A DNA stretch of 64,000 nt. Origin: an uncultured Clostridia bacterium (GTDB lineage Bacteria; Bacillota; Clostridia; Oscillospirales; Acutalibacteraceae). A program made the translations under genes and the position numbers. Below the pieces are notes generated by a model. That model made no database searches, was not told the origin of the DNA, and saw only the letters and a program-made list of their open reading frames with translations. The DNA lies in assembly GCA_937891195.1 (NCBI GenBank), contig CALAFJ010000017.1, forward strand, positions 6,770 through 70,769, read 5' to 3'. Positions 47,731 to 60,758 of the stretch are shown here, piece by piece (the first letter of the stretch is position 1; every line of letters begins with the position of its first letter).

Positions 47731-48966
47731 ATGAGCGACAAGAAGGAAAAGAACACCCCCGTTGTGGACGACGACGCGCTGGACGCGGAATTGCAGGCGG
47801 AGCGGGAGCAGCAGGCGCGGGAGGCCGCAGAGGAGCTGGAAGCCGAAGAAGAGCTGGAGGAGGCGGCGCCCGCCCCGAAAAAGGATAAAACCACCCAGCT
47901 CAACGATCTGGTGGAGCTGGGGCGCAGCAAGGGCAAGCTGACGGATCAGGAAATCATGGACGCCATGGAGAGCTTCGATTTCGATCCGGAGCAGATGGAC
48001 AAGCTCTATGAGATGCTGGAGGCCAACCACATTCAGGTGGTGGACGAGTTCGCCAATCTGCCGCTGGAGGATCTGGAGCTGGGCACCGAGGGGCAGGATA
48101 CCGACGATACCACCGAGGTCATTGCGGCGGAGAATATCTCCGTGGATGACCCGGTGAAAGCCTATCTCAAGGAGATCGGCCGGGTGCCGCTGCTGTCTCC
48201 GGAGGAGGAGACGGCGCTGGCCATGCGGATCATGGAGGGCGACGACAAGGCGAAAAAACGGCTGAGCGAGGCCAACCTCCGTCTGGTGGTCAGCATCGCC
48301 AAGCGGTATGTGGGACGGGGGATGCAATTCCTGGATCTGATCCAGGAGGGCAATCTGGGTCTGATCAAGGCGGTGGAAAAGTTCGACTATACCAAGGGCT
48401 TTAAGTTTTCCACCTACGCCACCTGGTGGATCCGGCAGGCCATCACCCGCGCCATCGCCGATCAGGCGCGCACCATCCGCATCCCGGTGCACATGGTGGA
48501 GACCATCAATAAGGTGAAGAAGGTGTCCAGCCAGCTGTTGCACAAAAACGGTCACGAGCCGTCGGCAGAGGAGATTTCCGAGGAGCTGAATATGCCGGTG
48601 GATAAGGTGCGGGAGATCATGCGGGTGGCCCAGGAGCCGGTATCGCTGGAAACCCCCATCGGCGAGGAGGAGGACAGCCATCTGGGCGATTTCATCCCCG
48701 ATGATGAAGCCCCCGCCCCGGCGGAGGCAGCCTCCCATACCCTGCTCAAGGAGCAGCTGGACGACGTGCTGATGTCTCTGACGGAACGGGAGGCCAAGGT
48801 GCTGCGCCTGCGGTTCGGTCTGGAGGACGGCCGTCCCCGTACGCTGGAGGAGGTCGGCAAGGAATTCGACGTGACCCGGGAGCGGATCCGTCAGATCGAG
48901 GCCAAGGCGCTGCGCAAGCTCCGCCACCCCAGCCGCAGCAAAAAGCTGAAGGATTTTCTGGATTGA
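47731..48966 (+). CDS. sigA: Primary RNA polymerase sigma factor
   Basis: The translation [22 protein letters not shown]......[77 protein letters not shown] is typical SigA. The gene lies downstream of dnaG. Confidence 0.96.
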
Positions 48967-49203
48967 ACTCAGATGTGCCGTCCCCGCAGGGGACGGCACG
49001 GCCGAGCGTCGGCGGAATGCCTGTCGGCCGGCGCAGCTGAGCCCGGTGTATCCCCCGGACGCGCGCTTTCGGGCGCTGCGGCCGGGGGTTTTTATGCTCT
49101 GCCGAAAAATGAAATGAAAAACGAGAATCGGAGCAAACGGTAGCAAAATCGAGAGAAAACGAGAGATTGAGGGATGTAAATGAAAAATTCCGGATTTTAG
49201 GGG

Positions 49204-49232
49204 TTGACAGCCGTTTTCGCCTGTGGTATGAT
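49204..49232 (+). promoter_or_regulatory. Sigma-A promoter (TTGACA-17-TATGAT) for rplM-rpsI
   Basis: A consensus -35 is at 49204-49209 and the -10 at 49227-49232. An A-rich UP-like tract lies upstream. Confidence 0.6.
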
Positions 49233-49239
49233 AGCGAAC

Positions 49240-49365
49240 GTTCCGCAGAAAAGCGGCGTTTTCCCGCACGTCTCACGGTGTCGGACGAGCCGCCCGTATG
49301 CAAGATATCCGGTACCGTCGGTTGCCCCGACGGTGCGCTCAACGCTTAATTAGGAGGAAACTACA
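49240..49365 (+). promoter_or_regulatory. rplM 5-prime leader (possible L13-leader-type autoregulatory RNA)
   Basis: A ~125-nt structured untranslated leader lies between the promoter and the rplM RBS. It is assigned only by position, by analogy with Firmicutes L13 leaders. Confidence 0.3.
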
Positions 49366-49791
49366 ATGACTTTTATGGCAAAAGCTGGTCAGGTCGAGCG
49401 TAAGTGGTACGTCATCGACGCTGCCGGTAAACCCCTGGGCCGTGTCGCTGTGCAGGCCGCCGTGCTGCTGCGCGGCAAGCATAAGCCCACCTTCACCCCT
49501 CATGTGGATTGCGGGGACAATGTGATCATCATCAACTGCGCCCAGGCCGTGCTGACCGGCAAGAAGCCGGAGCAGAAGCTGTGGCAGCGCCACACCGGCT
49601 GGATCGGCAACCTGAAGACCACCAAGTACGCCACGCTGATGGCGCAGCGCCCGGAGAAGGCGATGGAGCTGGCTGTGGGCGGCATGATCCCCAACAACAC
49701 CATCGGCCGCGCGGCGGAGACCCGTCTGCATTGCTATGCCGGCGCGGAGCATCCCCATGCGTCCCAGAAACCCGAAGCGATCGAGCTGTAA
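49366..49791 (+). CDS. rplM: 50S ribosomal protein L13
   Basis: The translation KWYVIDAAGKPLGRVA...A.LLRGKHKPTFTPH.D.GD.VIIIN is typical L13. Confidence 0.96.
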   Translation: MTFMAKAGQVERKWYVIDAAGKPLGRVAVQAAVLLRGKHKPTFTPHVDCGDNVIIINCAQAVLTGKKPEQKLWQRHTGWIGNLKTTKYATLMAQRPEKAMELAVGGMIPNNTIGRAAETRLHCYAGAEHPHASQKPEAIEL

Positions 49792-49815
49792 TTGAGATTG
49801 AAGGAGGCTATTACA

Positions 49816-50220
49816 ATGGATTACAATGCAAGACCCTTTTTCTATGGCACCGGCCGCCGGAAATCCTCTGTTGCTCGGGTGCGCCTGTACCAGGGCACCG
49901 GCAAGGTGACCATCAACGGTCGTGACATCGACGACTATTTCGGCCTGGAGACCCTGAAGCTGATCGTGCGTCAGCCGCTGGCTCTGACCGGTCTGACCGA
50001 GAAATTCGACGTGGAATGCCGGGTAGCCGGCGGCGGTGTGACCGGCCAGGCCGGCGCCATCCGTCACGGCATCGCCCGTGCGCTGCTGCAGTATGACAGC
50101 GAGAATCTGCGCTCTTCTCTGAAGAAAGCGGGCTTCCTGACCCGCGATCCTCGTATGAAGGAGCGGAAGAAATACGGCCTCAAAGCCGCCCGTCGCGCTC
50201 CGCAGTTCAGCAAGCGCTGA
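49816..50220 (+). CDS. rpsI: 30S ribosomal protein S9
   Basis: The translation [18 protein letters not shown]...INGR....YF........RQPL.......FD....[18 protein letters not shown]........[28 protein letters not shown] is typical S9. The ATG at 49816 follows GAAGGAGG. Confidence 0.96.
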
Positions 50221-50295
50221 TCACCCGCGATTTTACAACCAAATTGCTTCAAAAGCCCCGGAAAATCAAGGTTTTCCGGGGTTTTCTTATATCCG
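50177..50295. repeat. Left direct repeat (attL-like): the last ~44 nt of rpsI plus its terminator
   Basis: It is repeated at 56543-56662 with only about 3 substitutions over the first ~105 nt. Confidence 0.85.
50256..50287 (+). terminator. rpsI rho-independent terminator (duplicated at about 56622-56653)
   Basis: A CCCCGGAAAA / TTTTCCGGGG stem is followed by TTTTC. Confidence 0.72.
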
Positions 50296-50622
50296 CCGCG
50301 TTTGTTCTGCTTTCAAAAAATCTGATGGGATCAGACCCGGTTTGACGCGATCATTTCATGTTAATGATGGGCTAAGTGCCGTTTTTGACCCCGAAACTGT
50401 TAACGGATGGGCTAATTTTGGGGGGGTGCTCATGCGGTCATCCGGAGCAGATCGCCTCTGCATAAAAAATGAATAAAAGCTCCGAAAAACGGTTTCACCG
50501 GGTTTGAAACGGTTTGACCAAACCGAATGAACTTTATCATTTTTCGCAGGGCAAATGCCGCCGCAGGATCGATAAGTTGAGTACGGCCTGCTATGCTGAC
50601 GGCAGAAGGGACGGTATTGAGA

Positions 50623-50663
50623 AAAGCATCTCGAACCCTATCATATAGGGTTCGAGATGCTTT
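50623..50663 (-). terminator. Perfect 19-bp-stem hairpin downstream of the ATPase gene
   Basis: AAAGCATCTCGAACCCTAT-CAT-ATAGGGTTCGAGATGCTTT. A T-rich run follows on the minus strand. Confidence 0.6.
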
Positions 50664-50688
50664 CACTTTTAAACCAGCACTTTTGGGT

Positions 50689-52038
50689 TTAAAACTTGAA
50701 CCTATCCGCGGAAATGTCAACAAATTCGATCGGATCGTCTTGTAGGAACATTACCATATAGATAGGGAGATAGGTCAGCTTTCCATTGGTCCTTATATTA
50801 TCGTTTGTAAAAATGTAAGCTTCTTCTATTCCGTATTCTGTGACGGCCATCACATTGTCCAGTGCCGAGTGCTTTTCATAATCTTTTCCGCTCTTTACCT
50901 CAATAGGAAGCACCCGCCCTGCGTGCTCGACTACAAAATCAAGCTCGCCCTTTTTCTTGCTGTTGTAATAGTACAGCGGATAGCCGTGGGCATGAAGCTC
51001 TTGCGCCACCACGTTTTCATATACAGCACCTTTGTTGACATCCTTTTCCTTGCTGACGATCTTCAGCTTGCAGGCTTTTCCGTATATGGTCGTGAGCAGT
51101 CCTACATCTGACAGGAACAGCTTAAATAGTGTGCTCTTTTCATTCAGCATAAGCGGCACTGTGGGTTCCGTAGTGTTAAATACGCCCAAAGCGACACCGG
51201 CTTTCCAAAGCCATATGAAGCTGTCCTCGACCCGATCATAGCGCAGTCCTTTTTTAATGTCCGCGATCATAAACCGCTTGTTCTTCTCGTTCAGCTCCGC
51301 CGGGATAAGCTCGTAGATATGCGCGATGATCAGCTTGCGGTTTTCCGCTTCATACTGCGTAAAATCCAATTTATACTGCTCAATGATGGCTCTGTGCTCA
51401 TCCATTACATCGTCGATACTGCCAGTCATCCGATACTTTTCCACCGCAGCAGGCATACCACCGATGATCAAGTAGAGATTAAACATCTCCATGATCTTAC
51501 CGTGGATCACATCGTCTACAGGTGTTTTCGCGGCAAACGCTTTCCGCAGCACGTCCAATACAGGCTGGCCTACATTGAATACTTGCAGAAATTCTTCAAA
51601 GTCCAGGGGGTACATATTGAGCGTCTGCAGATAGCCGACCGGTGCGGACCTCAAGTTCACGATCTCCACGCCTAAAAGTGAGCCGGACAGAATATATCGA
51701 AACCGCTTATCCTCCACAAGGAATTTAATTTTAGTAACGATCTCCTTATATTTCTGAATTTCATCAAAGAAAAAGAAAGTCTTGCCGGGAACGATCTTCT
51801 TATCGCTGTACAGAGACAGCTTGAGAATTAGGTCGTCTATACCCGTCGCTCCGCTTAGGATATCTACAATTTCCGGTTGCCGTATCAGATTAAATTCGAT
51901 GTAGTCGCAGCCTGCAGTCTTTAGGCATTCACGGATAATAAATGTCTTTCCTGCTTGGCGGACACCATATACCAGCAGAGCTCGGTCACTTCCCTCGATC
52001 CAGTGCATAATGTCCTTCTCGATTTTTCTTTTCAGCAT
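50689..52038 (-). CDS. AAA-family ATPase with a DUF4143-type C-terminus
   Basis: A Walker A motif is present (LLVYGVRQAGKTF). A Walker B-like motif is FFFFDEIQ. The length and architecture are those of the common ATP-binding protein (AAA_14/DUF4143) family. The ATG at 52038 follows GAGGTGAT. Confidence 0.8.
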   Translation of the reverse strand: MLKRKIEKDIMHWIEGSDRALLVYGVRQAGKTFIIRECLKTAGCDYIEFNLIRQPEIVDILSGATGIDDLILKLSLYSDKKIVPGKTFFFFDEIQKYKEIVTKIKFLVEDKRFRYILSGSLLGVEIVNLRSAPVGYLQTLNMYPLDFEEFLQVFNVGQPVLDVLRKAFAAKTPVDDVIHGKIMEMFNLYLIIGGMPAAVEKYRMTGSIDDVMDEHRAIIEQYKLDFTQYEAENRKLIIAHIYELIPAELNEKNKRFMIADIKKGLRYDRVEDSFIWLWKAGVALGVFNTTEPTVPLMLNEKSTLFKLFLSDVGLLTTIYGKACKLKIVSKEKDVNKGAVYENVVAQELHAHGYPLYYYNSKKKGELDFVVEHAGRVLPIEVKSGKDYEKHSALDNVMAVTEYGIEEAYIFTNDNIRTNGKLTYLPIYMVMFLQDDPIEFVDISADRFKF

Positions 52039-52275
52039 TATTATCACCTCTACGGCTATTCTGTGCATTTTCCAAGAATACTATACCACGATTTTGACAT
52101 TTTTCAAGGGGCTCAGACCTGTAAATTGACATTTTTTCTTTTATTATGGCATCAATGAGGAAAACTGTGCAGCTGGCAAAAGCAAAAGCCACACGGCTTT
52201 TTCTGTACCCGGCATTACATAGCTGTCCGCCATCGCCGCAGGCAGCTAAATTTACAGACAAGGAGGAATCCCAAA

Positions 52276-53097
52276 GTGGCGAATGGTAAAGTGATCGCCG
52301 TAGCCAACCAAAAGGGCGGCGTCGGCAAAAGCACCAGCGTCTATTGCATCGGCGCGGGGCTTGCCATGGACGGCAAACGAGTTTTGCTTGTGGATGTTGA
52401 CCCGCAGGGCGATCTCACCAAGATGCTCGGTCAGCGCAAGCCCCATGAGCTGCCGCATACCCTGTCGGAGCAGATGAACGCCGTTGTGCAGAACAAAACC
52501 GAGCCGGAGCACCCGGAGATCCTGCACCATCATGAAGGCTTTGATTTTGTCCCTGCCAACCGCAGCCTATCGGCGGTGGAGGTGGGGTTGGTCAATGTCA
52601 TGAGCCGTGAAACCGTGCTCAGACGCTATCTGGACGGCATCAAGCAGGATTACGACTATGTGCTGCTGGATTGCCGCCCGTCGCTGGGTATGTTGGTCAT
52701 CAATGCCCTGTCGGCTGCGGATCATGTACTCATCCCGGTGCAGGCGGACTATCTGGCCGCTGAGGACATGACGGAGCTTGTGGGTACGGTGCAGAGCATC
52801 CGGCAGCAGATCAATCCCAAGCTGAAAATCGGCGGTGTCTTTCTGACGATGGCGAATGACACAAACTTCCGCAAAGACATTGTGGTCGGGGTAAAAGAAA
52901 ACTTTGGCAAGCATCTGCCCGTACTGGATGCCGTCATTCCCGCTACGGTGCGGCTGGCGGAGATCAGCACGGCAGACAAGAGCATCTTCCGGCATGAGCC
53001 GCGCGGACGGGCTGCCGCGGCCTACGGTGCGCTGGTAAAGGAGGTGGAACGCATTGGCGAAAAGCAACGCATCCGAGATGCTGACATCACTCGATAG
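52276..53097 (+). CDS. parA: ParA/Soj-family partition ATPase
   Basis: The translation KVIAVANQKGGVGKSTS carries a deviant Walker A motif. ...VLLVDVDPQGDLT...YDYVLLDCRPSLG is also present. A GTG start follows AGGAGGA. Confidence 0.9.
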   Translation: MANGKVIAVANQKGGVGKSTSVYCIGAGLAMDGKRVLLVDVDPQGDLTKMLGQRKPHELPHTLSEQMNAVVQNKTEPEHPEILHHHEGFDFVPANRSLSAVEVGLVNVMSRETVLRRYLDGIKQDYDYVLLDCRPSLGMLVINALSAADHVLIPVQADYLAAEDMTELVGTVQSIRQQINPKLKIGGVFLTMANDTNFRKDIVVGVKENFGKHLPVLDAVIPATVRLAEISTADKSIFRHEPRGRAAAAYGALVKEVERIGEKQRIRDADITR

Positions 53098-53989
53098 CCT
53101 GTTTACCACACAGGAGCAGCGGGACGAAGCCAAGCGCGACAGTGTGCAGGACATCCCGCTTGCCCAAATCAGCGATTTCCCCGAACATCCCTTCAAGGTA
53201 AAGCAGGACGAGGCCATGATGGAAATGGCGGAGAGTGTGCGGCAATACGGCGTCTTGGTGCCGGGGCTTGTGCGGCAGTTGGAGGACGGCAGTTATCAGA
53301 TGGTATCGGGACACCGGCGCAAGCTGGCTAGCGTCCTGGCAGGACGGGACACGATCCCCTGCATCGTGCGCAACCTGACGGATGATGAAGCCGTTATTAT
53401 CATGGTGGACAGCAATCTCCAGCGCGAGCGCGTATTGCCGTCGGAAAAGGCATTTGCCTATAAAATGAAGCTGGATGCCATGCGAAGGCAGCAAGGAGAG
53501 CGGACAGATTTAACTTCTGCCCCACTGGGGCAGAAGTTTGACGGAAAGACTTCCCGTGAGCTTCTGGCGATAGAATCACCGGATAGTCACAGCCAAATCC
53601 AGCGCTATATCCGCCTCACCAACCTCATCCCGGAAATTCTGGACATGGTGGATGAAGGTCGGATCGCCTTTCGCCCTGCGGTAGAGCTATCCTACCTTGC
53701 CGAACAGGAGCAGCGCACTCTTTATGACACCATGGGGTGTGAGGACTGCACGCCGTCGCTTGCACAGGCCATTAAGATGAAGGCGTTCAGCCGCGACGGG
53801 AAGCTGACTGATGCGGTGATCCTGTCCATCATGGAGGAGGAAAAGCCCAACCAACGGGAACAATTCCGCTTGCCGCGAGATCGTATCAATAGATTTTTTA
53901 AGCCGGGGACGCCCGCGCAGACGATCGAGGATACGATCATCCGGGCATTGGAGCTGTATCGCAAGCGGCAGCGGGATATGGAACGATAG
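53054..53989 (+). CDS. parB: ParB-like nuclease-domain protein (mobile-element type)
   Basis: The translation DIPLAQISDFPEHPFKV.QDEAMMEMAESVRQYGVLVPGLVR....G.YQMVSGHRR..A...AG.DTIPCIVRNLTDDEA.IIMVDSNLQRE is the ParB pattern. The start is uncertain: TTG at 53054 or ATG at 53078. Confidence 0.85.
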   Translation: MAKSNASEMLTSLDSLFTTQEQRDEAKRDSVQDIPLAQISDFPEHPFKVKQDEAMMEMAESVRQYGVLVPGLVRQLEDGSYQMVSGHRRKLASVLAGRDTIPCIVRNLTDDEAVIIMVDSNLQRERVLPSEKAFAYKMKLDAMRRQQGERTDLTSAPLGQKFDGKTSRELLAIESPDSHSQIQRYIRLTNLIPEILDMVDEGRIAFRPAVELSYLAEQEQRTLYDTMGCEDCTPSLAQAIKMKAFSRDGKLTDAVILSIMEEEKPNQREQFRLPRDRINRFFKPGTPAQTIEDTIIRALELYRKRQRDMER

Positions 53990-54168
53990 ATTTTTCCGCC
54001 AAGGGACAGGTCTGCCCTGCAAAATGCGGATGTATCGGCGCGGCGCTTCACCGCTCCCCCTCTCCACACCTCACCCCCTCAAAAACCTGCTGTACCTGCC
54101 GAAAAAAGAGATAGCGTTGCGTCGATTTCAGCCTTCGGGTACAATAACGGCGAAAGGAGGTCGTTTTC

Positions 54169-54873
54169 ATGAAACAGATCCTGGTTTTTGTGTTTTCGGT
54201 GGGTATCCTGCTGCTTTCCGCCTGTGCCGCGCAGTCAAATGCGCCGGAAACATCCACAGCAAGCGACCGGGCAGGCATAACAGAGAGCACCTTGCCCCGA
54301 CAGGAGGAGCCAATTTATTCTTCGGCCGGTAATGAAATCGCTGAAACCATCCCCACAGAAAGCACGATGCAACCGACGCAGCCCACAGAACCGCAACCGG
54401 GCGTTACCGCAGAACCGCCGCTCACAACAACACCGCCGACGCAAAAGCCCACGCAGCCGCCCCAAGCGCCGCAGGAAACGGCAGAAACAAAGCCGCCCGA
54501 AATCATCACACAGCCCTCCGAAGCGCCGACCGAGCCACCGGATACAGCATCTGATCCCGTCTACACACAGGCAGACTTTGACAGGATCATCTCGGAAGTC
54601 AGAGCTTATGCGGAAAGCTATGCGGCACAGGGCTTTCGCTTTATCTGGACGGACAGTATGGCGTTTTCCCAGGATGTCGGATACTTCGGGACGCCGTATC
54701 TCCGACAGGAAGGCGTGGACGGCACGATCAGCCGACTGCAATACCATGTGGATAAGATCGTCAAAACTTCCACCGATCCGGCCAACGGTGTGACCGTATC
54801 CGAAATGAGCTACAAGGTCGTACAGATCGAACGGAACGGAGAGATCGCTTTTGCCGTCATTTACGGCGGCTGA
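54169..54873 (+). CDS. Hypothetical lipoprotein with a Pro/Thr/Gln-rich linker
   Basis: The translation MKQILVFVFSVGILLLSAC has a lipobox. It is followed by a PTQPTEPQP...TQKPTQPPQAPQ linker and a ~110-aa C-terminal domain. Confidence 0.7.
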   Translation: MKQILVFVFSVGILLLSACAAQSNAPETSTASDRAGITESTLPRQEEPIYSSAGNEIAETIPTESTMQPTQPTEPQPGVTAEPPLTTTPPTQKPTQPPQAPQETAETKPPEIITQPSEAPTEPPDTASDPVYTQADFDRIISEVRAYAESYAAQGFRFIWTDSMAFSQDVGYFGTPYLRQEGVDGTISRLQYHVDKIVKTSTDPANGVTVSEMSYKVVQIERNGEIAFAVIYGG

Positions 54874-54894
54874 ACAACTTCATATCAAGCAGAA

Positions 54895-54925
54895 GCACCG
54901 TCTTTTTTCGGACGGTGTTTTTTTG
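54895..54925 (+). terminator. Rho-independent terminator
   Basis: A GCACCGTC / GACGGTG stem is followed by TTTTTTT. Confidence 0.65.
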
Positions 54926-54952
54926 CGCCCAAAACAAGGAGGAACGAACAGA

Positions 54953-55504
54953 ATGAACCGAAAAATCACCAAGCTCGGCAGCTTGCTGCTTGCCTTTACG
55001 CTGCTGCTGTCATCCATGCTCCCCATCACCGCCTCGGCGGCATCCGGCGTGACCATGGATCTGACTAACTGCCATGTCAGCTGGGACTACACACTGACCG
55101 ACGAGGACGGCAACGCTTTCACCGCTGCATACGGCGTCAGGGCCGAGGACAATCCTTTCGGCGGAGCCGTATCACCCGCCGTGCGGAAAATGCACGACTA
55201 CACCGCCAAGCGAAACGGGCTGACCGGCTCCAGAGCGGATTGGACTTACGGAGCAGACTATGTGTACTGCTTTTGCATCGAACACGGTGTACCGCTCCCG
55301 AACAATTACGAATATGCGGGGTCAAGCGATCCGAACCACGGCAACAAATATCAGATGCTTTCCAACGAGCAGAAGGATCTGTTGGCGCTGGCACTGACCT
55401 ATGGCTACCCCAACCGTGTGGGCTTGCAGACCAGCAAGGACGCAAACGCCTGCTACGCCGAAACATCATTCCGTATCTCGGAGAGAAGAAGATCGCGGAT
55501 GTGA
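54953..55504 (+). pseudogene. N-terminal ~170-aa stub of a large secreted surface protein (thioester/TQXA-type adhesin-like), truncated by deletion
   Basis: A signal peptide MNRKITKLGSLLLAFTLLLSSMLPITASA is present. YCFCIEHG and LTYGYPN...ANACYAET resemble the thioester-domain N-termini of conjugative-element adhesins. The frame runs into out-of-frame integrase sequence after about 55460 and stops at 55504. Confidence 0.5.
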
Positions 55505-56430
55505 CTTTGGATGATATTCAGCTTGCCCTTGTGCCGGTTTCCCAAAAATCCGCTTCGGTGTATAAGTCGGTCATCGTGATCTATAAGTGCATTTTCCGTG
55601 CGGCAGAGGAAAGCCGGATCATCAGCAAAAATCCCACAGTGTATTTGTCGCCCCAGGGCGGCGGTGTCCCGCAGGGAGAGAAGCAGCCGTTGACGGATGA
55701 ACAGGTGCAGCGGCTGTTGGATGCGGTTCGTGAATTGCCGCCCTATGTCTTTATCATGCTGGGGCTATACGCCGGTTTGCGGCGGGAAGAAATTCTCGGT
55801 CTGCAATGGGATTCGGTCTACCTGGACACTGAAGCGCCGTATTTGACTGTGCGCAGAGCGTGGCATGTGCCGACCCCATATATTTCTGTCCGGCGTGCAT
55901 GGCGGGGAAGCCACCGGAAAGAGCCGGAGATCTCTACCGTATTAAAAACTCCGGCATCCAGAAGGGATATTCCCATTCCAAAGTGTTTGGTAGAGTGTCT
56001 GCGAGAGGCAAAGCGATCTTCCAAATCTGCCTTTGTGATTTCAAATCGTAAGGGTGGCCCCCTTTCTGAGGGAGAGTTTGTGGGAGTTTGGTACCATGTT
56101 AAAAGCCGCACCGCAGGAGAGAAAATCAGCTACAAGTATGTGAATGGGGAACACATCCGTTATACGACCTGCCCCATTCTCGGAAGCCATCGGAAAGGCT
56201 TCCCGAACCATGTGTATAGTCTGGATTTCCATGTGACCCCGCACCAGCTTCGCCACACATACATTACGAACCTCTTATATATGGGTGTAGACCCCAAGAC
56301 CGTGCAATATCTCGCCGGGCATAAAAACAGTAAAACAACTATGGACATTTATGCAAAAATCAAGTATAATAAACCTCAAGAGCTTTTCCCTGTCGTAAAC
56401 GCTGCGTTACGGCCTGTCGCAATGCCTTGA
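55462..56430 (+). pseudogene. Tyrosine integrase lacking its N-terminal (~70-90 aa) arm-binding region and its own start codon
   Basis: From NIIPYLGEKKIADVTLDDIQ onward there is a typical core-binding domain plus a catalytic domain (LYAGLRREEILGL, HQLRHTYITN, LAGHKNSKTTMDIY). The upstream in-frame residues are an out-of-frame read of the surface-protein gene. Confidence 0.7.
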
Positions 56431-56542
56431 AAATACCCGTTTTTAACGATGCTTTCTGTTAATGTACGGGCTAAGTCCAGTTGCGACATCCTCAAAAGTG
56501 TTGGAATATCAAGGGGAATCGGGATTTTTTCAGCCCAGTACA

Positions 56543-56662
56543 GCCTCAAAGCCGCCCGTCGCGCTCCGCAGTTCAGCAAGCGCTGATCACTCGCGATTTT
56601 ACAACCAAATTGCTTCAAAAGCCCCGGAAAATCAAGGTTTTCCGGGGCTTTTCCTTATCCAC
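56543..56662. repeat. Right direct repeat (attR-like): duplicate of the rpsI 3-prime end plus terminator
   Basis: See 50177-50295. The spurious minus-strand ORFs 50064-50252 and 56376-56618 both begin [24 protein letters not shown]. Confidence 0.85.
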
Positions 56663-56743
56663 TCGGCAGATGTGGCTTGATCAGTTTTGATTTCTGCTGG
56701 GATCGGGGGGAAGAAAAAATGACCGAAATTTGCAAAAAACCTC

Positions 56744-56793
56744 TTGACAGGTAACCGTTCGGTTGCTATACTAATAGTAACCGAACGGTTACT
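56744..56793 (+). promoter_or_regulatory. Promoter (TTGACA-17-TATACT) with two TAACCG-NN-CGGTTA operator palindromes
   Basis: GTAACCGTTCGGTTGC fills the spacer at 56751-56766. The perfect palindrome AGTAACCGAACGGTTACT is at 56776-56793. Both lie directly upstream of a TetR-family gene. Confidence 0.62.
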
Positions 56794-56813
56794 GCTGACT
56801 TGGGGGTGAGATC

Positions 56814-57443
56814 ATGGCCGGAGATACCAAGGAGCGTATTTTGGAGACGGCGCTCGCATTATTCGCCCGGAGCGGGTATTTGGGCACCTCTATGAGCGAC
56901 ATTGCCCGGGAACTGGGGATTACCAAGGGTGCCTTGTATAAACACTATACGAGCAAGCAGGAGATTTTGGACAGCATCGTGGAGCGGATGAACAAAATGG
57001 ACTATGAGCGTGCCGAAGAATATGAAATGCCGGAAACGGAGCCGGACGGCTTTGCGGAGGCGTATCTGCACACACCGATCGAAAACATCCGCACGTACAG
57101 CATGGCGCAGTTTGACCATTGGACGAAGGAGCCGTTCTCCTCGAATTTCCGCAAAATGCTGACCTTGGAGCAATATCGCGACCCCAAGCTCGCCCGGCTG
57201 TATCACGAGTATCTGGCCACCGGCCCGACCGCGTATATGGCGGCGATCTTCCGTAAGCTGACGGATTCCGACGATGCCGCCATGCAGCTGGCGTTGGGAT
57301 TTTACGGACCGATGTTCCTGCTTTACAGTGTTTACGATGGAGCAAGCGAGAAAGAACGCATAGCTCCCATGCTGCGTGCCCACATCGACCGCTTTATTGC
57401 GGAGATCGAATCCGGGTATAGAAAGTCAGGGACAGACGCATGA
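56814..57443 (+). CDS. TetR/AcrR-family transcriptional regulator
   Basis: The translation TKERILETALALFARSGYLGTSMSDIARELGITKGALYKHY is the TetR HTH signature. Confidence 0.88.
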   Translation: MAGDTKERILETALALFARSGYLGTSMSDIARELGITKGALYKHYTSKQEILDSIVERMNKMDYERAEEYEMPETEPDGFAEAYLHTPIENIRTYSMAQFDHWTKEPFSSNFRKMLTLEQYRDPKLARLYHEYLATGPTAYMAAIFRKLTDSDDAAMQLALGFYGPMFLLYSVYDGASEKERIAPMLRAHIDRFIAEIESGYRKSGTDA

Positions 57444-57634
57444 AAGAGACCGTAGAAGAAAAGCACTGGGTCCTGTGCCCGCTGTGCGGAGCCAAAACGC
57501 GCCTGCAGCTCTTGCCGGAAACGGAGCTGAAAGCATTTCCGCTGTTTTGCCCGAAATGCAGGCGCGAAAGCGTTATCAACGCCAAACATTTTATTGTTGA
57601 AGCCAGACAGCCAGACGCTGAGACGCAGTGCTGA
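57440..57634 (+). CDS. Cysteine-rich KTR-type small protein
   Basis: WVLCPLCGAKTRLQL...FPLFCPKCRRE contains two CxxC pairs with KTR. The ATGA overlap with the TetR stop suggests translational coupling. Confidence 0.7.
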   Translation: MKETVEEKHWVLCPLCGAKTRLQLLPETELKAFPLFCPKCRRESVINAKHFIVEARQPDAETQC

Positions 57635-57685
57635 TCGCAAAGCCGATCATGCGCTGCGTCTTGTTTTTTGAACGGAGGAGTTTGT

Positions 57686-58192
57686 ATGTACGCGCTCATT
57701 TACACCACCAACACCGGCAGCACCAAGCGCTATGCCGAGCTGCTGGCACAGGAAACCGGACTTCCGGTCTATTCGCTTGCCGAGGCGAAAAAGGCCGTCC
57801 CGACCGGAGCGGAGGTCATTTACCTCGGCTGGATCACAGCCGGCGCCGTGAAGGGCTACGCCGGCGCCGCCAAGCGATATCGCATACGAGCGGTCTGCGC
57901 GGTGGGCATGGGGCAGACCGGAACGCAGACCGAAAGCGTGCGGAAAAAGGCGGCTGTTCCGGCAGCCGTTCCGCTGTTCACTCTGCAAGGCAACTTTGAT
58001 GTGAAAAAGCTGCGCGGCCTGTATCGAGTCATGATGGAGATCATGGTCAAGGCGGCCGGTAAAAGTCTTGCCGCGAAGAAAGAGCGCACGCCGGAGGAGG
58101 ACGATATGCTGGACAGGATGCTCCACGGGGGCCAGCGGGTCAAAGCGGAGAATTTAAGCGCTGTGCTCCATTGGTATAACGCACAGCAATAA
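57686..58192 (+). CDS. Flavodoxin-like domain protein
   Basis: The translation MYALIYTTNTGSTKRYAELLAQETGLP is a flavodoxin-like phosphate-binding N-terminus. The ATG follows GGAGGAG. Confidence 0.7.
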   Translation: MYALIYTTNTGSTKRYAELLAQETGLPVYSLAEAKKAVPTGAEVIYLGWITAGAVKGYAGAAKRYRIRAVCAVGMGQTGTQTESVRKKAAVPAAVPLFTLQGNFDVKKLRGLYRVMMEIMVKAAGKSLAAKKERTPEEDDMLDRMLHGGQRVKAENLSAVLHWYNAQQ

Positions 58193-58213
58193 GAATGGGA
58201 GGGATTTATCGTG

Positions 58214-58426
58214 ATGTGTCCGAAATGCGGAAAAGAAATGAAAAGAGGGTATTTATTCAGCAGTAAGGACGGCGCTTTCAGCTTCGCAAATGAAGTGCCG
58301 GGCGCTCTGGAAAATGCCAAATACGCAGAGGGCTTTGTGAGGATTACCGGGCTGAAGGTCGGGGGCCGTACCGGTGTGGCGGCCGGCTGCTGCGATGGGT
58401 GCAGAGTGGTTGCAATGTCATACTAA
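58214..58426 (+). CDS. Small zinc-ribbon protein
   Basis: The translation is MCPKCGKEMKRGYL...CCDGCRVV. The start is either GTG at 58211 or ATG at 58214. Confidence 0.5.
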   Translation: MCPKCGKEMKRGYLFSSKDGAFSFANEVPGALENAKYAEGFVRITGLKVGGRTGVAAGCCDGCRVVAMSY

Positions 58427-58441
58427 GGGGGTGCAGAGAGA

Positions 58442-58852
58442 ATGAAACTCTATTTTGGCAATGCCGTTACGACGGCGACAACCCTGATGATCCTTGTGTT
58501 GCTTGGATTCATCGGGTATTCGGTTTGGGAGCGCGCAAATATTCTATACTGGGGACGCAGAAGTGCACTTCTGCTGATCTTCGGTCTGGTGATCTGCTGC
58601 TTTGCGGCGGCGCGGGATGGCCTGGACAGAACGATTCAGCACGCCATCGACGGCAGCTGTGCGCCGGGGCTGTTTCCGCTCATCAGCGTACCGACCGTCG
58701 TCGGCTGTGTCGGCGCGCTGCTGATCATGGTGGCCGCCGTTGCCACGCCCATCGCCAAAACGCAGCAGGCGCGGGAGGTCTGGTTCTATGTGATGTCCGG
58801 CGGCGCGCTGCTGAAGATCGCGACCATGGAGATCGCGCGGATCGTCCTTTGA
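58442..58852 (+). CDS. Hypothetical membrane protein (4 TM)
   Basis: It has four hydrophobic segments and is the last gene of the TetR-linked cluster. Confidence 0.55.
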   Translation: MKLYFGNAVTTATTLMILVLLGFIGYSVWERANILYWGRRSALLLIFGLVICCFAAARDGLDRTIQHAIDGSCAPGLFPLISVPTVVGCVGALLIMVAAVATPIAKTQQAREVWFYVMSGGALLKIATMEIARIVL

Positions 58853-59071
58853 GGCGGCATGGGGTGCAGGATCCGGTCACGAGTGTCCCGGCCGCATCGG
58901 GGCGCAGGCGGAAAGCCGCGCGGCGGCCGCCCCGGAGTTTTCCGAGAATGGGGGCTGATCCCTCTGCGGCGGCAGCCGCCGGTACAGAACGCAATAGGGT
59001 ATATCAGCCCGGAGAGCGGTTGCCTATGGGCTGATCGACAAAATCATTGATACAGGAAAAGGAGAAAAACC

Positions 59072-59698
59072 ATGTCAAAGAACAATATTCTCATCCGACT
59101 TGAAACCAAGGACGAGTACAGAGCCGTCGAAAACCTGACCCGGGAGGCATTCTGGAATGTCTACCGTCCCGGCTGCATGGAGCACTATGTGCTGCACTGC
59201 TATCGGAACGATCCGGCATTCGTGCCGGAGCTGGACTTTGTGATGGAACTGGACGGCCAGCTGATCGGGCAGGTCATCTATGTGCGGTCGGAGATCGACT
59301 GCGATGACGGACGAAAGGTACCGATCATGACCTTCGGCCCCATCGGCATTGCGCCCGCATACAAGCGGCAGGGTTACGGAAAGCGGCTGCTGGACTATTC
59401 CATGGAGAAGGCCCGGGAAATGGGTGCGGGAGCGCTGGCCATCACCGGCAACATTCTGTTCTACGGCCAATCCGGCTTTGTCCCGGCCAAAACAAAAGGG
59501 GTGCGCTATGCGGACGATCCGGAGGCGGACTATTTCCTCATCAAGGAGCTGACGCCCGGCTTTCTGGACGGTATTTCCGGCACCTACAAAGACCCGGAGG
59601 GGTATTTCGTCTGCGAGCGCGATCCGGAGGGCTTTGCGCGGTTTGAGGCTACTTTTCCGCATAAGGAGAAGCAGAAGCTGCCCGGGCAGCTGTTCTGA
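59072..59698 (+). CDS. GNAT-family N-acetyltransferase
   Basis: [20 protein letters not shown] is the acetyl-CoA-binding Q/RxxGxG/A motif. The product is 208 aa. Confidence 0.8.
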
Positions 59699-59744
59699 TC
59701 GGAAGCAGGACGAAAGAATACCGTTGAAAAAGGAGACGATGACC

Positions 59745-60389
59745 ATGATCCCAACCTGGAAGATCTATCCCCGTTCCCAGGGGCATAGCACGGTATATCT
59801 GAAAAATGTTATCACCGACCCCGCCATTACCGTGGGCGACTATACCGTCTACGACGATTTTGTCCGCGACCCGCGGGATTTTCAGCGCAACAATGTACTG
59901 TATCACTATCCCGAATGCAACCATGACAGGCTGCATATCGGTAAATTCTGTTCCATCGCCTGCGGCGCAAAGTTCCTCTTCAATGCCGCCAACCATACGC
60001 TGGGCAGTCTCTCCACCTATCCGTTCCCGATCTTCTTTGAGGAGTGGGAACTGCCTGCGGATGCGGATTCCATCGCCGATGCGTGGGATAACCACGGCGA
60101 TATTCTGGTGGGCAACGACGTGTGGATCGGCTATGAAGCCGTCATTTTCGCGGGCGTGACCATCGGCGACGGGGCGATCATCGGCACGCGCGCGGTGGTG
60201 ACAAAGGACGTGCCGCCCTATACCATCGTGGGCGGCGTTCCCGCCAGACCCATCCGCCAGCGCTTTGACAAGGCGACGATCGAGAGACTGGAGGCTTTGC
60301 GCTGGTGGGATTGGGACGCGGAGAAGATTCGGCGTAATATCCCGGCCATTCGGTCCGGCGACATTGCCGCGTTGGCGCGCGCGGAATGA
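59745..60389 (+). CDS. Vat-family (xenobiotic/streptogramin A type) hexapeptide O-acetyltransferase
   Basis: There are blocks of clear similarity to VatD as I remember it: [54 protein letters not shown] and WW.W. The start may be 59739 or 59745; 59745 has the better RBS spacing. Confidence 0.8.
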
Positions 60390-60758
60390 ACCGGCCGCGA
60401 TCGCGTCGGACGGATGACGGATACGCGCCGTAAAACCGAAACGATTAGGAGCATCAAAATGGTTCGTTTGGCTTGTTGAGATAATGCGGGAAGATAGGGT
60501 GAAAAAGGGCCGGACACACTTCTCGCCGGGACAAAGACCATGCTCGTGTGCGTGGAGCGGGAGGTCCTGAAGCGGTCGGGCTATGCGGCACGTCTGTCTT
60601 GCCATCGTTCGATCATCGTGCAGAAGAAAATCCCCTTAATGGGGGCGCATCGGGTTATTCCTCCTGCCGGACGGGCTTTGGTGAAAGTGGCCTCTTGATT
60701 TATGAGGCGCTCTGTGCTATGATTCTCTCCGGCAGTTTTGTATGGAGGACGTATAGTA

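Follow-up and report, generated by a model that had tools for sequence, protein, structure and literature searches.

A probable decayed remnant of an rpsI-specific integrative and conjugative element in an uncultured Clostridia bacterium, and the paired integrases of its intact relatives

Introduction

In an uncultured Clostridia bacterium of the family Acutalibacteraceae, rpsI, the gene for ribosomal protein S9, is followed by about 6.4 kb of DNA that lie between two copies of the rpsI 3' end and include an apparent tyrosine integrase gene. The locus belongs to a stretch of 64,000 nucleotides (GenBank assembly GCA_937891195.1, contig CALAFJ010000017.1, positions 6,770 to 70,769), which is referred to here as the window and to which all window coordinates refer. 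A preliminary description made from the letters of the window had read the segment as an integrative element inserted into rpsI, and this raises the question of whether the segment is a mobile element that works, the residue of a larger one, or a duplication with an integrase nearby by coincidence.

Comparison with the other species of the genus and with 80 loci that encode related integrases leads us to conclude, with a probability of roughly 0.88, that positions 50173–56660 are a defective remnant of an rpsI-specific integrative and conjugative element (ICE), either a decayed ICE (dICE) or CIME-like, where CIME stands for the concept of a cis-mobilizable element. The insertion into rpsI that had been proposed therefore stands, but not the idea of a working element: the integrase lacks ~95 residues and is a chimera of two paralogous genes, int1 and int2, and there is no excisionase, relaxase or type IV secretion system (T4SS).

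Results

The repeats that bound the element

A repeat search over 48–59 kb of the window returned a single outstanding direct repeat, which is 122 nt long with 94% identity between its copies (50173–50294 and 56539–56660) and has a core of 105 nt at 99% identity in a blastn comparison (50177–50281 and 56543–56647). The copies run without a difference through the rpsI stop codon, the first mismatch being a C/T at 50224. The repeat at 50177 and 56543 had previously been given about three differences; the repeat itself is real, but the string then quoted has one difference and the others sit at the repeat edges. These are the only two copies in the whole 2.73-Mb assembly (G000), from which a third copy is absent, and a search of the same genome for a further, diverged orphan rpsI tail showed that none exists.

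The left copy (attL) takes in the terminal ~16 codons and stop codon of rpsI, a gene that is 83–94% conserved across the genus. Direct folding revealed a hairpin followed by a U-run in both copies (−21.8 kcal/mol in attL and −25.0 kcal/mol in attR, z about −5), which a simple terminator scan had missed; the stem has 15–16 bp in each copy and is the rpsI terminator. The full-length Ribosomal_S9 match and the folding of both hairpins agree with the earlier statement that the repeat completes an intact rpsI at the left and provides an orphan tail plus terminator at the right. The terminator hairpin (CCCCGGAAAATCAAGGTTTTCCGGGG) of the window attL is that of a sister species (G018), the window attR has a near-identical one, and the same hairpin is found in the attL of an ICE in a distant host, Clostridiaceae bacterium Marseille-Q4145 (G055). 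Because it is common to both window copies and to the G055 ICE, which comes from a different bacterial family, the hairpin appears to be element-borne.

The integrase reading frame

A tyrosine integrase gene had been noted just before the right repeat, and an integrase open reading frame (ORF) does end there, at 56430 and ~108 nt from the repeat, but the gene is not intact. Homologues in a collection of 5.8 billion proteins are consistently ~404 aa long, and the window ORF (55240–56430) aligns with them from residue ~96 onward only, its first ~74 residues being an out-of-frame read-through of an adhesin gene. Residues 1 to ~95, which hold the arm-binding domain and the start of the core-binding domain, are thus missing from the window integrase; this N-terminal part is conserved in all 149 full-length integrase genes of the family. 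The public record annotates a 309-aa 'integrase' and a 183-aa hypothetical protein at this locus. NCBI assembly GCA_002431285.1 also contains the locus, on contig DJEF01000059.1.

The remainder of the ORF has two sources. Positions 55454–55865 have 88–90% nucleotide identity to the first of two tandem integrase genes on metagenome contigs (L036–L041), and positions 55865–56656 have 93–95% identity to the second gene, its 3' spacer and the orphan rpsI tail beyond it (L040–L042). At the protein level, the ORF is of int1 type (P0028) as far as '...EAPYLTVRRAWH' and of int2 type (P0011/P0014) from 'PTPYISVRRAW...', and the int2 segment is 97% identical to residues 218–403 of P0011. The joint between the two is in frame and carries a 13-codon duplication, with EAPYLTVRRAWHV directly before it and PTPYISVRRAW directly after it.

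Two junctions can be placed in this region. At J1 (~55459/55461), adhesin codon ~169 is fused to int1 codon ~95, which severs the thioester (TED) domain of the adhesin at position 51 of its 102-position profile, and at J2 (~55865) int1 codon ~231 is fused to int2 codon ~217. By comparison with the G055 ICE, ~44 kb are missing from the window copy, among them the excisionase-like HTH_17 gene that precedes int1 in L040. How many deletions took place, and in which order, was deduced solely from comparison with relatives. A second integrase of the family was not found elsewhere in the G000 assembly, and ORF and Pfam analysis of 50295–56538 detected no relaxase, T4SS, coupling protein, VirB4 or excisionase.

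An integrase family directed to rpsI

The family was surveyed by an integrase-profile scan in which one genome per species was used and 80 loci from named Bacillota genomes were kept (L043–L122). These span Oscillospiraceae, Lachnospiraceae, Erysipelotrichaceae, Clostridiaceae and others, and in 78 of them an S9 tail of 16–22 codons to the stop lies ~100–115 nt past the integrase stop codon. Three genomes with long contigs have a complete rpsI upstream of the integrases and on the same strand, at a distance of 43 kb in Flavonifractor sp. (G057), 50 kb in Clostridiaceae bacterium Marseille-Q4145 (G055) and 80 kb in Owariibacterium komagatae (G054). The intact relatives for which the preliminary description had advised a search were thereby found as ICEs of 43–80 kb, in the order rpsI-attL-ParA-ParB-TED/SpaA adhesin-cargo-MobA/VirD2 relaxase-VirD4-VirB4-CHAP hydrolase-PemK-(HTH_17 excisionase-like)-int1-int2-attR.

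The G055 element (G055:C1:1327000-1379000) is a bona fide ICE, with an att duplication of 121 nt at 96.7%. Between ParA/ParB and the integrases it encodes a 1381-aa TED/SpaA adhesin, a 2848-aa SNF2-type protein, AbiEii, a DUF3991/Toprim protein, a MobA/VirD2 relaxase, a DUF3801 protein, a VirD4 coupling protein and an AAA_10 VirB4-like ATPase; PemK, a CHAP hydrolase and a sigma-70 region-4 protein are also present. We take its conjugation module to be of the Tn1549/Tn5252 kind, rather than ICESt3-like. The intact 1381-aa adhesin, with both TED and SpaA domains, occupies the position of the TED stub in the window, and the window ParA is 82% identical to the ParA that directly follows attL in the G055 ICE. 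The window ParB has 65% identity to the ParB at the same position in G055 and 53% to that in G054. For the TED stub and the lipoprotein-like ORF, comparison with the left ends of the intact ICEs at hand yielded no close homologue.

Within the genus, the integrase occurs in one of 37 species genomes, that of the window, and is lacking in all 36 sister species. The S9 tail in 78 of 80 loci, the rpsI gene at the other ICE end, the att duplication of G055 and this absence from the sister species bear out the proposal that an integrase-borne element entered the 3' end of rpsI, and comparison of these sequences strongly supports rpsI as the attB of the integrase family.

The ends of the element are likewise those of the family. 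About 100 nt just inside attL are conserved with G055 and G018, and the window contains the motif GTTAA-N4/5-GGGCTAA at just three places (50360, 50399 and 56458), all of them at the element ends and in one orientation. Motifs of the same type stand at the same position in 51 of 77 right arms of the family, and the GTTAA-N4/5-GGGCTAA motifs are plausible candidates for arm-type integrase sites.

Two further observations were made on the intact family. A second ParA/ParB pair immediately past the attR of the G055 ICE (L125, ~1377270-1379000) represents tandem accretion at rpsI. In addition, one identical int1 protein is encoded at 29 loci in different genera and families (the L060-L094 group), with hosts such as Angelakisella, Faecalibacterium sp. 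An122, Amedibacillus dolichus, Anaerotignum lactatifermentans and Flavonifractor spp.; this protein identity indicates that one rpsI-ICE has spread horizontally, very recently and widely, through gut Bacillota. Identical integrase pairs are present in ~30 species-level genomes, which makes the rpsI ICE family a major channel for gene flow between gut bacteria.

A twin integrase module

In 74 of the 80 loci int1 lies directly upstream of int2; of the six exceptions, four are truncated by the end of a contig. Full-length genes number 69 for int1 and 80 for int2, and R-K-H-R-H-Y is invariant in each set. The two proteins have 53% identity and form two groups with 100/100 support, which suggests that the pair is ancient and has been retained, and that it may act as a heteromeric recombinase. 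No description of a paired tyrosine-integrase module for Bacillota ICEs was found in the literature searched. The rpsI ICE family resembles Tn554-type and XerC/XerD-type pairs in that two adjacent, paralogous and catalytically complete tyrosine recombinases are conserved together; similarity of the rpsI-family integrases to Xer proteins and to the Tn1549 Int is weak and confined to the C-terminal ~50–60 residues. The comparison with Tn554 and Xer concerns the ICE family, of whose pair the window copy retains a fused fragment only. The twin module is the less expected result, about the family rather than the window locus.

As a tentative proposal, to which we give somewhat less than even odds, int1 and int2 may form an obligatory pair for integration into and excision from rpsI, perhaps as a heteromeric XerC/D-like or Tn554-like recombinase, and the rpsI 3' end may in addition be a hot spot for several element families in the genus that leave arrays of ~215-nt cassettes behind.

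The nature of the element and alternative explanations

The segment is bounded by the att sites and arms of the ICE family, with attL, left arm, right arm and attR all homologous to those of intact members. What has been kept comprises both att sites, both arms with their motifs, a PDC-S01 ATPase, ParA, ParB, a lipoprotein and the truncated chimeric integrase (Table 1). Of an rpsI ICE, the att repeats that duplicate the rpsI end are present, and a functional integrase and a conjugation module are not. The features of a decayed ICE are found throughout: ICE-family boundaries, internal deletion junctions and no autonomous genes for recombination or transfer.

Table 1. Features of the rpsI locus in the window, with positions in window coordinates
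Feature	Position	Strand	Basis
rpsI (ribosomal protein S9), intact	49792..50220	+	Pfam Ribosomal_S9 1-121/121, E=2.5e-51
attL: rpsI tail, stop codon, terminator hairpin (~50252-50285)	50173..50294	+	Repeat; homologous to attL of the G055 ICE
Left arm, two direct GTTAA-N4/5-GGGCTAA motifs (50360-50375, 50399-50415)	50295..50440	+	Conserved with G018 and G055
AAA_14/DUF4143 ATPase	50689..52068	-	Pfam; PADLOC PDLC04792, E=1e-181, profile 1-436/452
ParA-type partition ATPase	52276..53097	+	Pfam AAA_31/CbiA
ParB-type protein	53054..53989	+	Pfam ParB_N
Lipoprotein-like secreted ORF, 234 aa, Pro/Thr-rich, LLLSAC lipobox-like	54169..54873	+	ORF
TED (thioester) surface adhesin, N-terminal stub: signal peptide and half TED domain	54953..55504	+	Pfam TED positions 2-51/102
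int1-derived segment (~codons 95-231 of a 404-aa tyrosine integrase), without its own start codon	55461..55865	+	Nucleotide and protein alignment
int2-derived segment (~codons 217-404)	55865..56430	+	Nucleotide and protein alignment
Right arm, one GTTAATGTACGGGCTAA arm-type motif (56458-56474)	56431..56538	+	93-95% identical to L040-L042
attR: orphan rpsI tail (~16 codons and stop, to 56586), hairpin (~56617-56652)	56539..56660	+	Repeat

In the mechanism that we propose, the tyrosine-integrase module would recombine an element-borne attP with the last ~50–120 nt of rpsI plus the terminator, and integration would rebuild an intact rpsI and terminator at attL and leave the displaced tail at attR. 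A single deletion, of ~44 kb by comparison with G055, would then have joined adhesin codon ~169 to int1 codon ~95, and a second junction, in frame but unequal, would have joined int1 to int2. The remnant should be unable to excise alone and could be mobilised only if a related ICE gave Int and Xis in trans; because G000 has no other integrase of the family, nothing in the assembly could act in this way. The element is therefore predicted to be immobile alone yet to keep everything that is needed in cis.

Four sets of observations weigh against this account. The chimeric ORF keeps all of the catalytic residues R-K-H-R-H-Y, and their presence makes a residual core-type activity possible. An empty-site allele of the same species was not found by an exact-junction scan of metagenome contigs, and an exact-protein look-up of the flanking TetR gave only the same occupied locus and no empty site. 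The sister species G018 shares the left end of the element (L002, G018:C26:26184-30904; rpsI, att, left arm and ATPase at 92.6% overall across window positions 47736-52155) yet lacks both a family integrase and an attR in its assembly, which is 97% complete; this bears on the history of the ATPase module. Finally, attR carries a terminator of the element type, as attL does, whereas a simple crossover within the rpsI tail would leave the host terminator at attR; an extra cause is therefore needed, and this could be a long segment of identity, the loss of a tandem partner or gene conversion acting between the two repeats. When the ~65 nt past attR were aligned with five left arms, as a possible relic arm of such a lost element, the alignments did not clearly surpass shuffled sequence: one of the five beat all 500 shuffles, on an 18-nt match only.

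With regard to the G018 locus, a second DUF4143 gene follows the ATPase and the contig then ends, so that either the assembly breaks here or the locus has decayed even further than the window copy. Another species of the genus, G041, offers a site that is unoccupied by the rpsI ICE family: its rpsI end occurs once, without duplication, and has a terminator that is homologous but diverged.

The retained catalytic residues, together with the intact att sites and arm motifs and the 309-aa integrase that a gene caller placed in the public record, could also be read as signs of a small integrative (mobilizable) element that is still autonomous, with an integrase of 309–396 aa acting on the 6.4-kb unit. 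We consider this very unlikely, as such an enzyme would lack the ~95 N-terminal residues that no full-length family gene is without and would be a chimera with a 13-aa duplication inside its catalytic domain. The upstream adhesin gene is moreover visibly cut, and the segment has neither an excisionase-like gene nor a relaxase or recognisable oriT. Hardly more probable is a composite of two separate acquisitions, in which a PDC-S01 ATPase islet shared with G018 (50295–52155) would have joined an ICE remnant (52155–56538). The sharp shift in GC from 45% to 57%, the end of the G018 similarity at ~52155 and the G018 genome itself, in which comparison at the DNA level shows the ATPase module and neither ParA/ParB nor an integrase, would all suit such an origin, as would the varied positions of DUF4143 ATPase genes near the integrases of other family members. 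No att copy separates the two parts, however, the genome having two copies only, and the ATPase gene is separated from attL by the ICE-type left arm and its motifs, which places the ATPase inside the element. A composite origin is nevertheless compatible with a decayed ICE if the ATPase is regarded as a nested cargo insertion at the ICE end.

A segmental or tandem duplication of the rpsI end without site-specific recombination, with the integrase nearby by coincidence, is the least credible explanation and has next to no probability in our view. Sister species do show tandem arrays of rpsI-tail cassettes with no integrase nearby, but the layout of int2, ~110 nt and S9 tail recurs in 78 of 80 loci from many genera, the right arm and orphan tail are 93–95% identical to those of other family members, and intact elements have matching att duplications. 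A defective remnant of an rpsI-specific ICE thus remains the reading that we prefer.

Gene content between the repeats

The genes previously listed between the repeats, namely an ATPase, a parA/parB pair, a lipoprotein, a surface-protein stub and an integrase ORF, were all recovered by ORF and Pfam analysis. The G+C content is ~0.61 in the rplM-rpsI region, 0.43–0.48 over the ATPase gene and 0.52–0.60 over the remainder. The ATPase module is low-GC cargo (~45%) between the left arm and parA that ends near 52155, and it is shared with G018 at ~86–92% up to that position. Its protein matches the PDC-S01 family hidden Markov model over nearly the full length and is on this basis a candidate single-gene phage defence system (PADLOC PDC-S01); a protein look-up returned no other record of the exact sequence. 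The 234-aa lipoprotein-like ORF, which had no match in Pfam, NCBIfam or PADLOC, is putative cargo. In the TED stub the true frame stops near 55459 and is followed by nonsense until the stop codon.

AAA_14/DUF4143 genes of the PDC-S01-like kind recur beside the integrase pair at varied positions. In L040/L041 such a gene separates int1 from int2, and in L036/L037/L039 it precedes a broken int1; this suggests that the gene type is itself mobile cargo at ICE ends.

Relation to known elements

The earlier remark that rpsI is less commonly reported as a target than tRNA genes is correct, but the target has already been published: rpsI was described in 2016 as a target of streptococcal ICEs (PMC4701971), IMESag-rpsI has been the subject of experiments (PMC5090054), and ICE_RhoA2-183_rpsI has been described from Roseburia hominis A2-183, with relatives in Dorea formicigenerans and Blautia schinkii (FirmiData, PMC12904643). 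The last of these is, like the family studied here, a gut-Clostridia ICE in rpsI, and our family is also found in many Lachnospiraceae and Oscillospiraceae; the comparison is made at the level of published descriptions, and the window copy differs in being a 6.4-kb remnant and not an ICE.

The streptococcal rpsI elements, that is ICEs with an ICESt3-type module and IMESag-rpsI (PMC4701971, PMC5090054, PMC5357655), likewise use a tyrosine integrase, insert at the rpsI 3' end, leave the gene intact and are flanked by att repeats that duplicate its tail. Their hosts are phylogenetically different, and the shared target gene alone is established. They have been described with one integrase, whereas the ICE family of the window carries two paralogous ones, and in place of the ICESt3-type module the intact relatives here have a MobA/VirD2 relaxase, DUF3801, VirD4 and an AAA_10 VirB4.

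The term dICE is in use for Firmicutes, in which ICE accretion has also been described (PMC4701971, PMC9585547). The window element shares with CIMEs and dICEs its ICE-family att flanks, the want of working recombination and conjugation modules and an internal deletion, and it may, like them, be mobilised in cis or in trans by an incoming ICE; accretion of ICEs at one site is likewise seen in G055. The window element is therefore a new, decayed example of the already known rpsI-integrated ICEs and in itself fairly ordinary. Its value lies in a coordinate-level annotation of a fossil ICE, which matters for correct mobile-element calls in gut metagenome-assembled genomes, and in the route of decay that it illustrates, with a deletion into the integrase and a fusion of paralogous integrase genes that left the att sites and a probable defence gene in place. 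The family, for its part, carries an undescribed twin-integrase module that is open to direct testing.

Flanking DNA and the rpsI site in sister species

The preliminary description held that rpsI was ancestrally followed by the TetR cluster that now lies to the right of the element. This did not hold up: the two adjoin each other in none of the species of the genus (37 genomes), and neither rpsI nor an integrase stands beside TetR in any of the 58 gut-metagenome contigs with enough upstream sequence to be informative. The rejection of the cluster as the ancestral neighbour of rpsI extends to the metagenome, where it is never beside rpsI or an integrase in 80 loci, and its homologues in G041 and G051 do not adjoin rpsI. 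The cluster may have been the neighbour of rpsI in the immediate ancestor of this strain, although no sign supports this. In the other species of the genus rplM-rpsI is kept and gene order past rpsI is not conserved.

The cluster itself (56711–60400) encodes TetR, a Cys-rich KTR protein, a flavodoxin, a DUF6487 protein, a membrane protein, a GNAT protein and a hexapeptide acetyltransferase. It recurs at 75–92% in many human-gut metagenome contigs, in which its content is shuffled as a mosaic and the upstream contexts differ. Similarity to the window cluster always begins at 56711–56743, which is the TetR promoter.

Several sister species have tandem arrays of two to three cassettes of ~210–230 nt right after rpsI (G005:C3, G022:C45, G014:C53 and G002:C6; L027, L032/L005, L031/L012 and L007, respectively), which occupy the first ~600 nt past the gene. 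Each cassette consists of an orphan tail of rpsI, a terminator hairpin of its own and a conserved segment of ~100 nt (GCGGGCGGCCGGATGTATC...GGGAGAATGG-loop-CCATTCTC), and the copies in G005 are 98% identical over 182 nt. We considered the arrays as scars of the ICE family of the window but rejected this, since they do not resemble the arms of either the window element or the G055 ICE; a search against Rfam gave no match. A different family that targets rpsI may have left them, as scars or as miniature elements. In many draft genomes of the genus (G001, G002, G004, G008, G011, G020, G021 and G023) the contig ends a few hundred to ~2000 nt from rpsI, which fits the presence of repeated or mobile DNA downstream of the gene.

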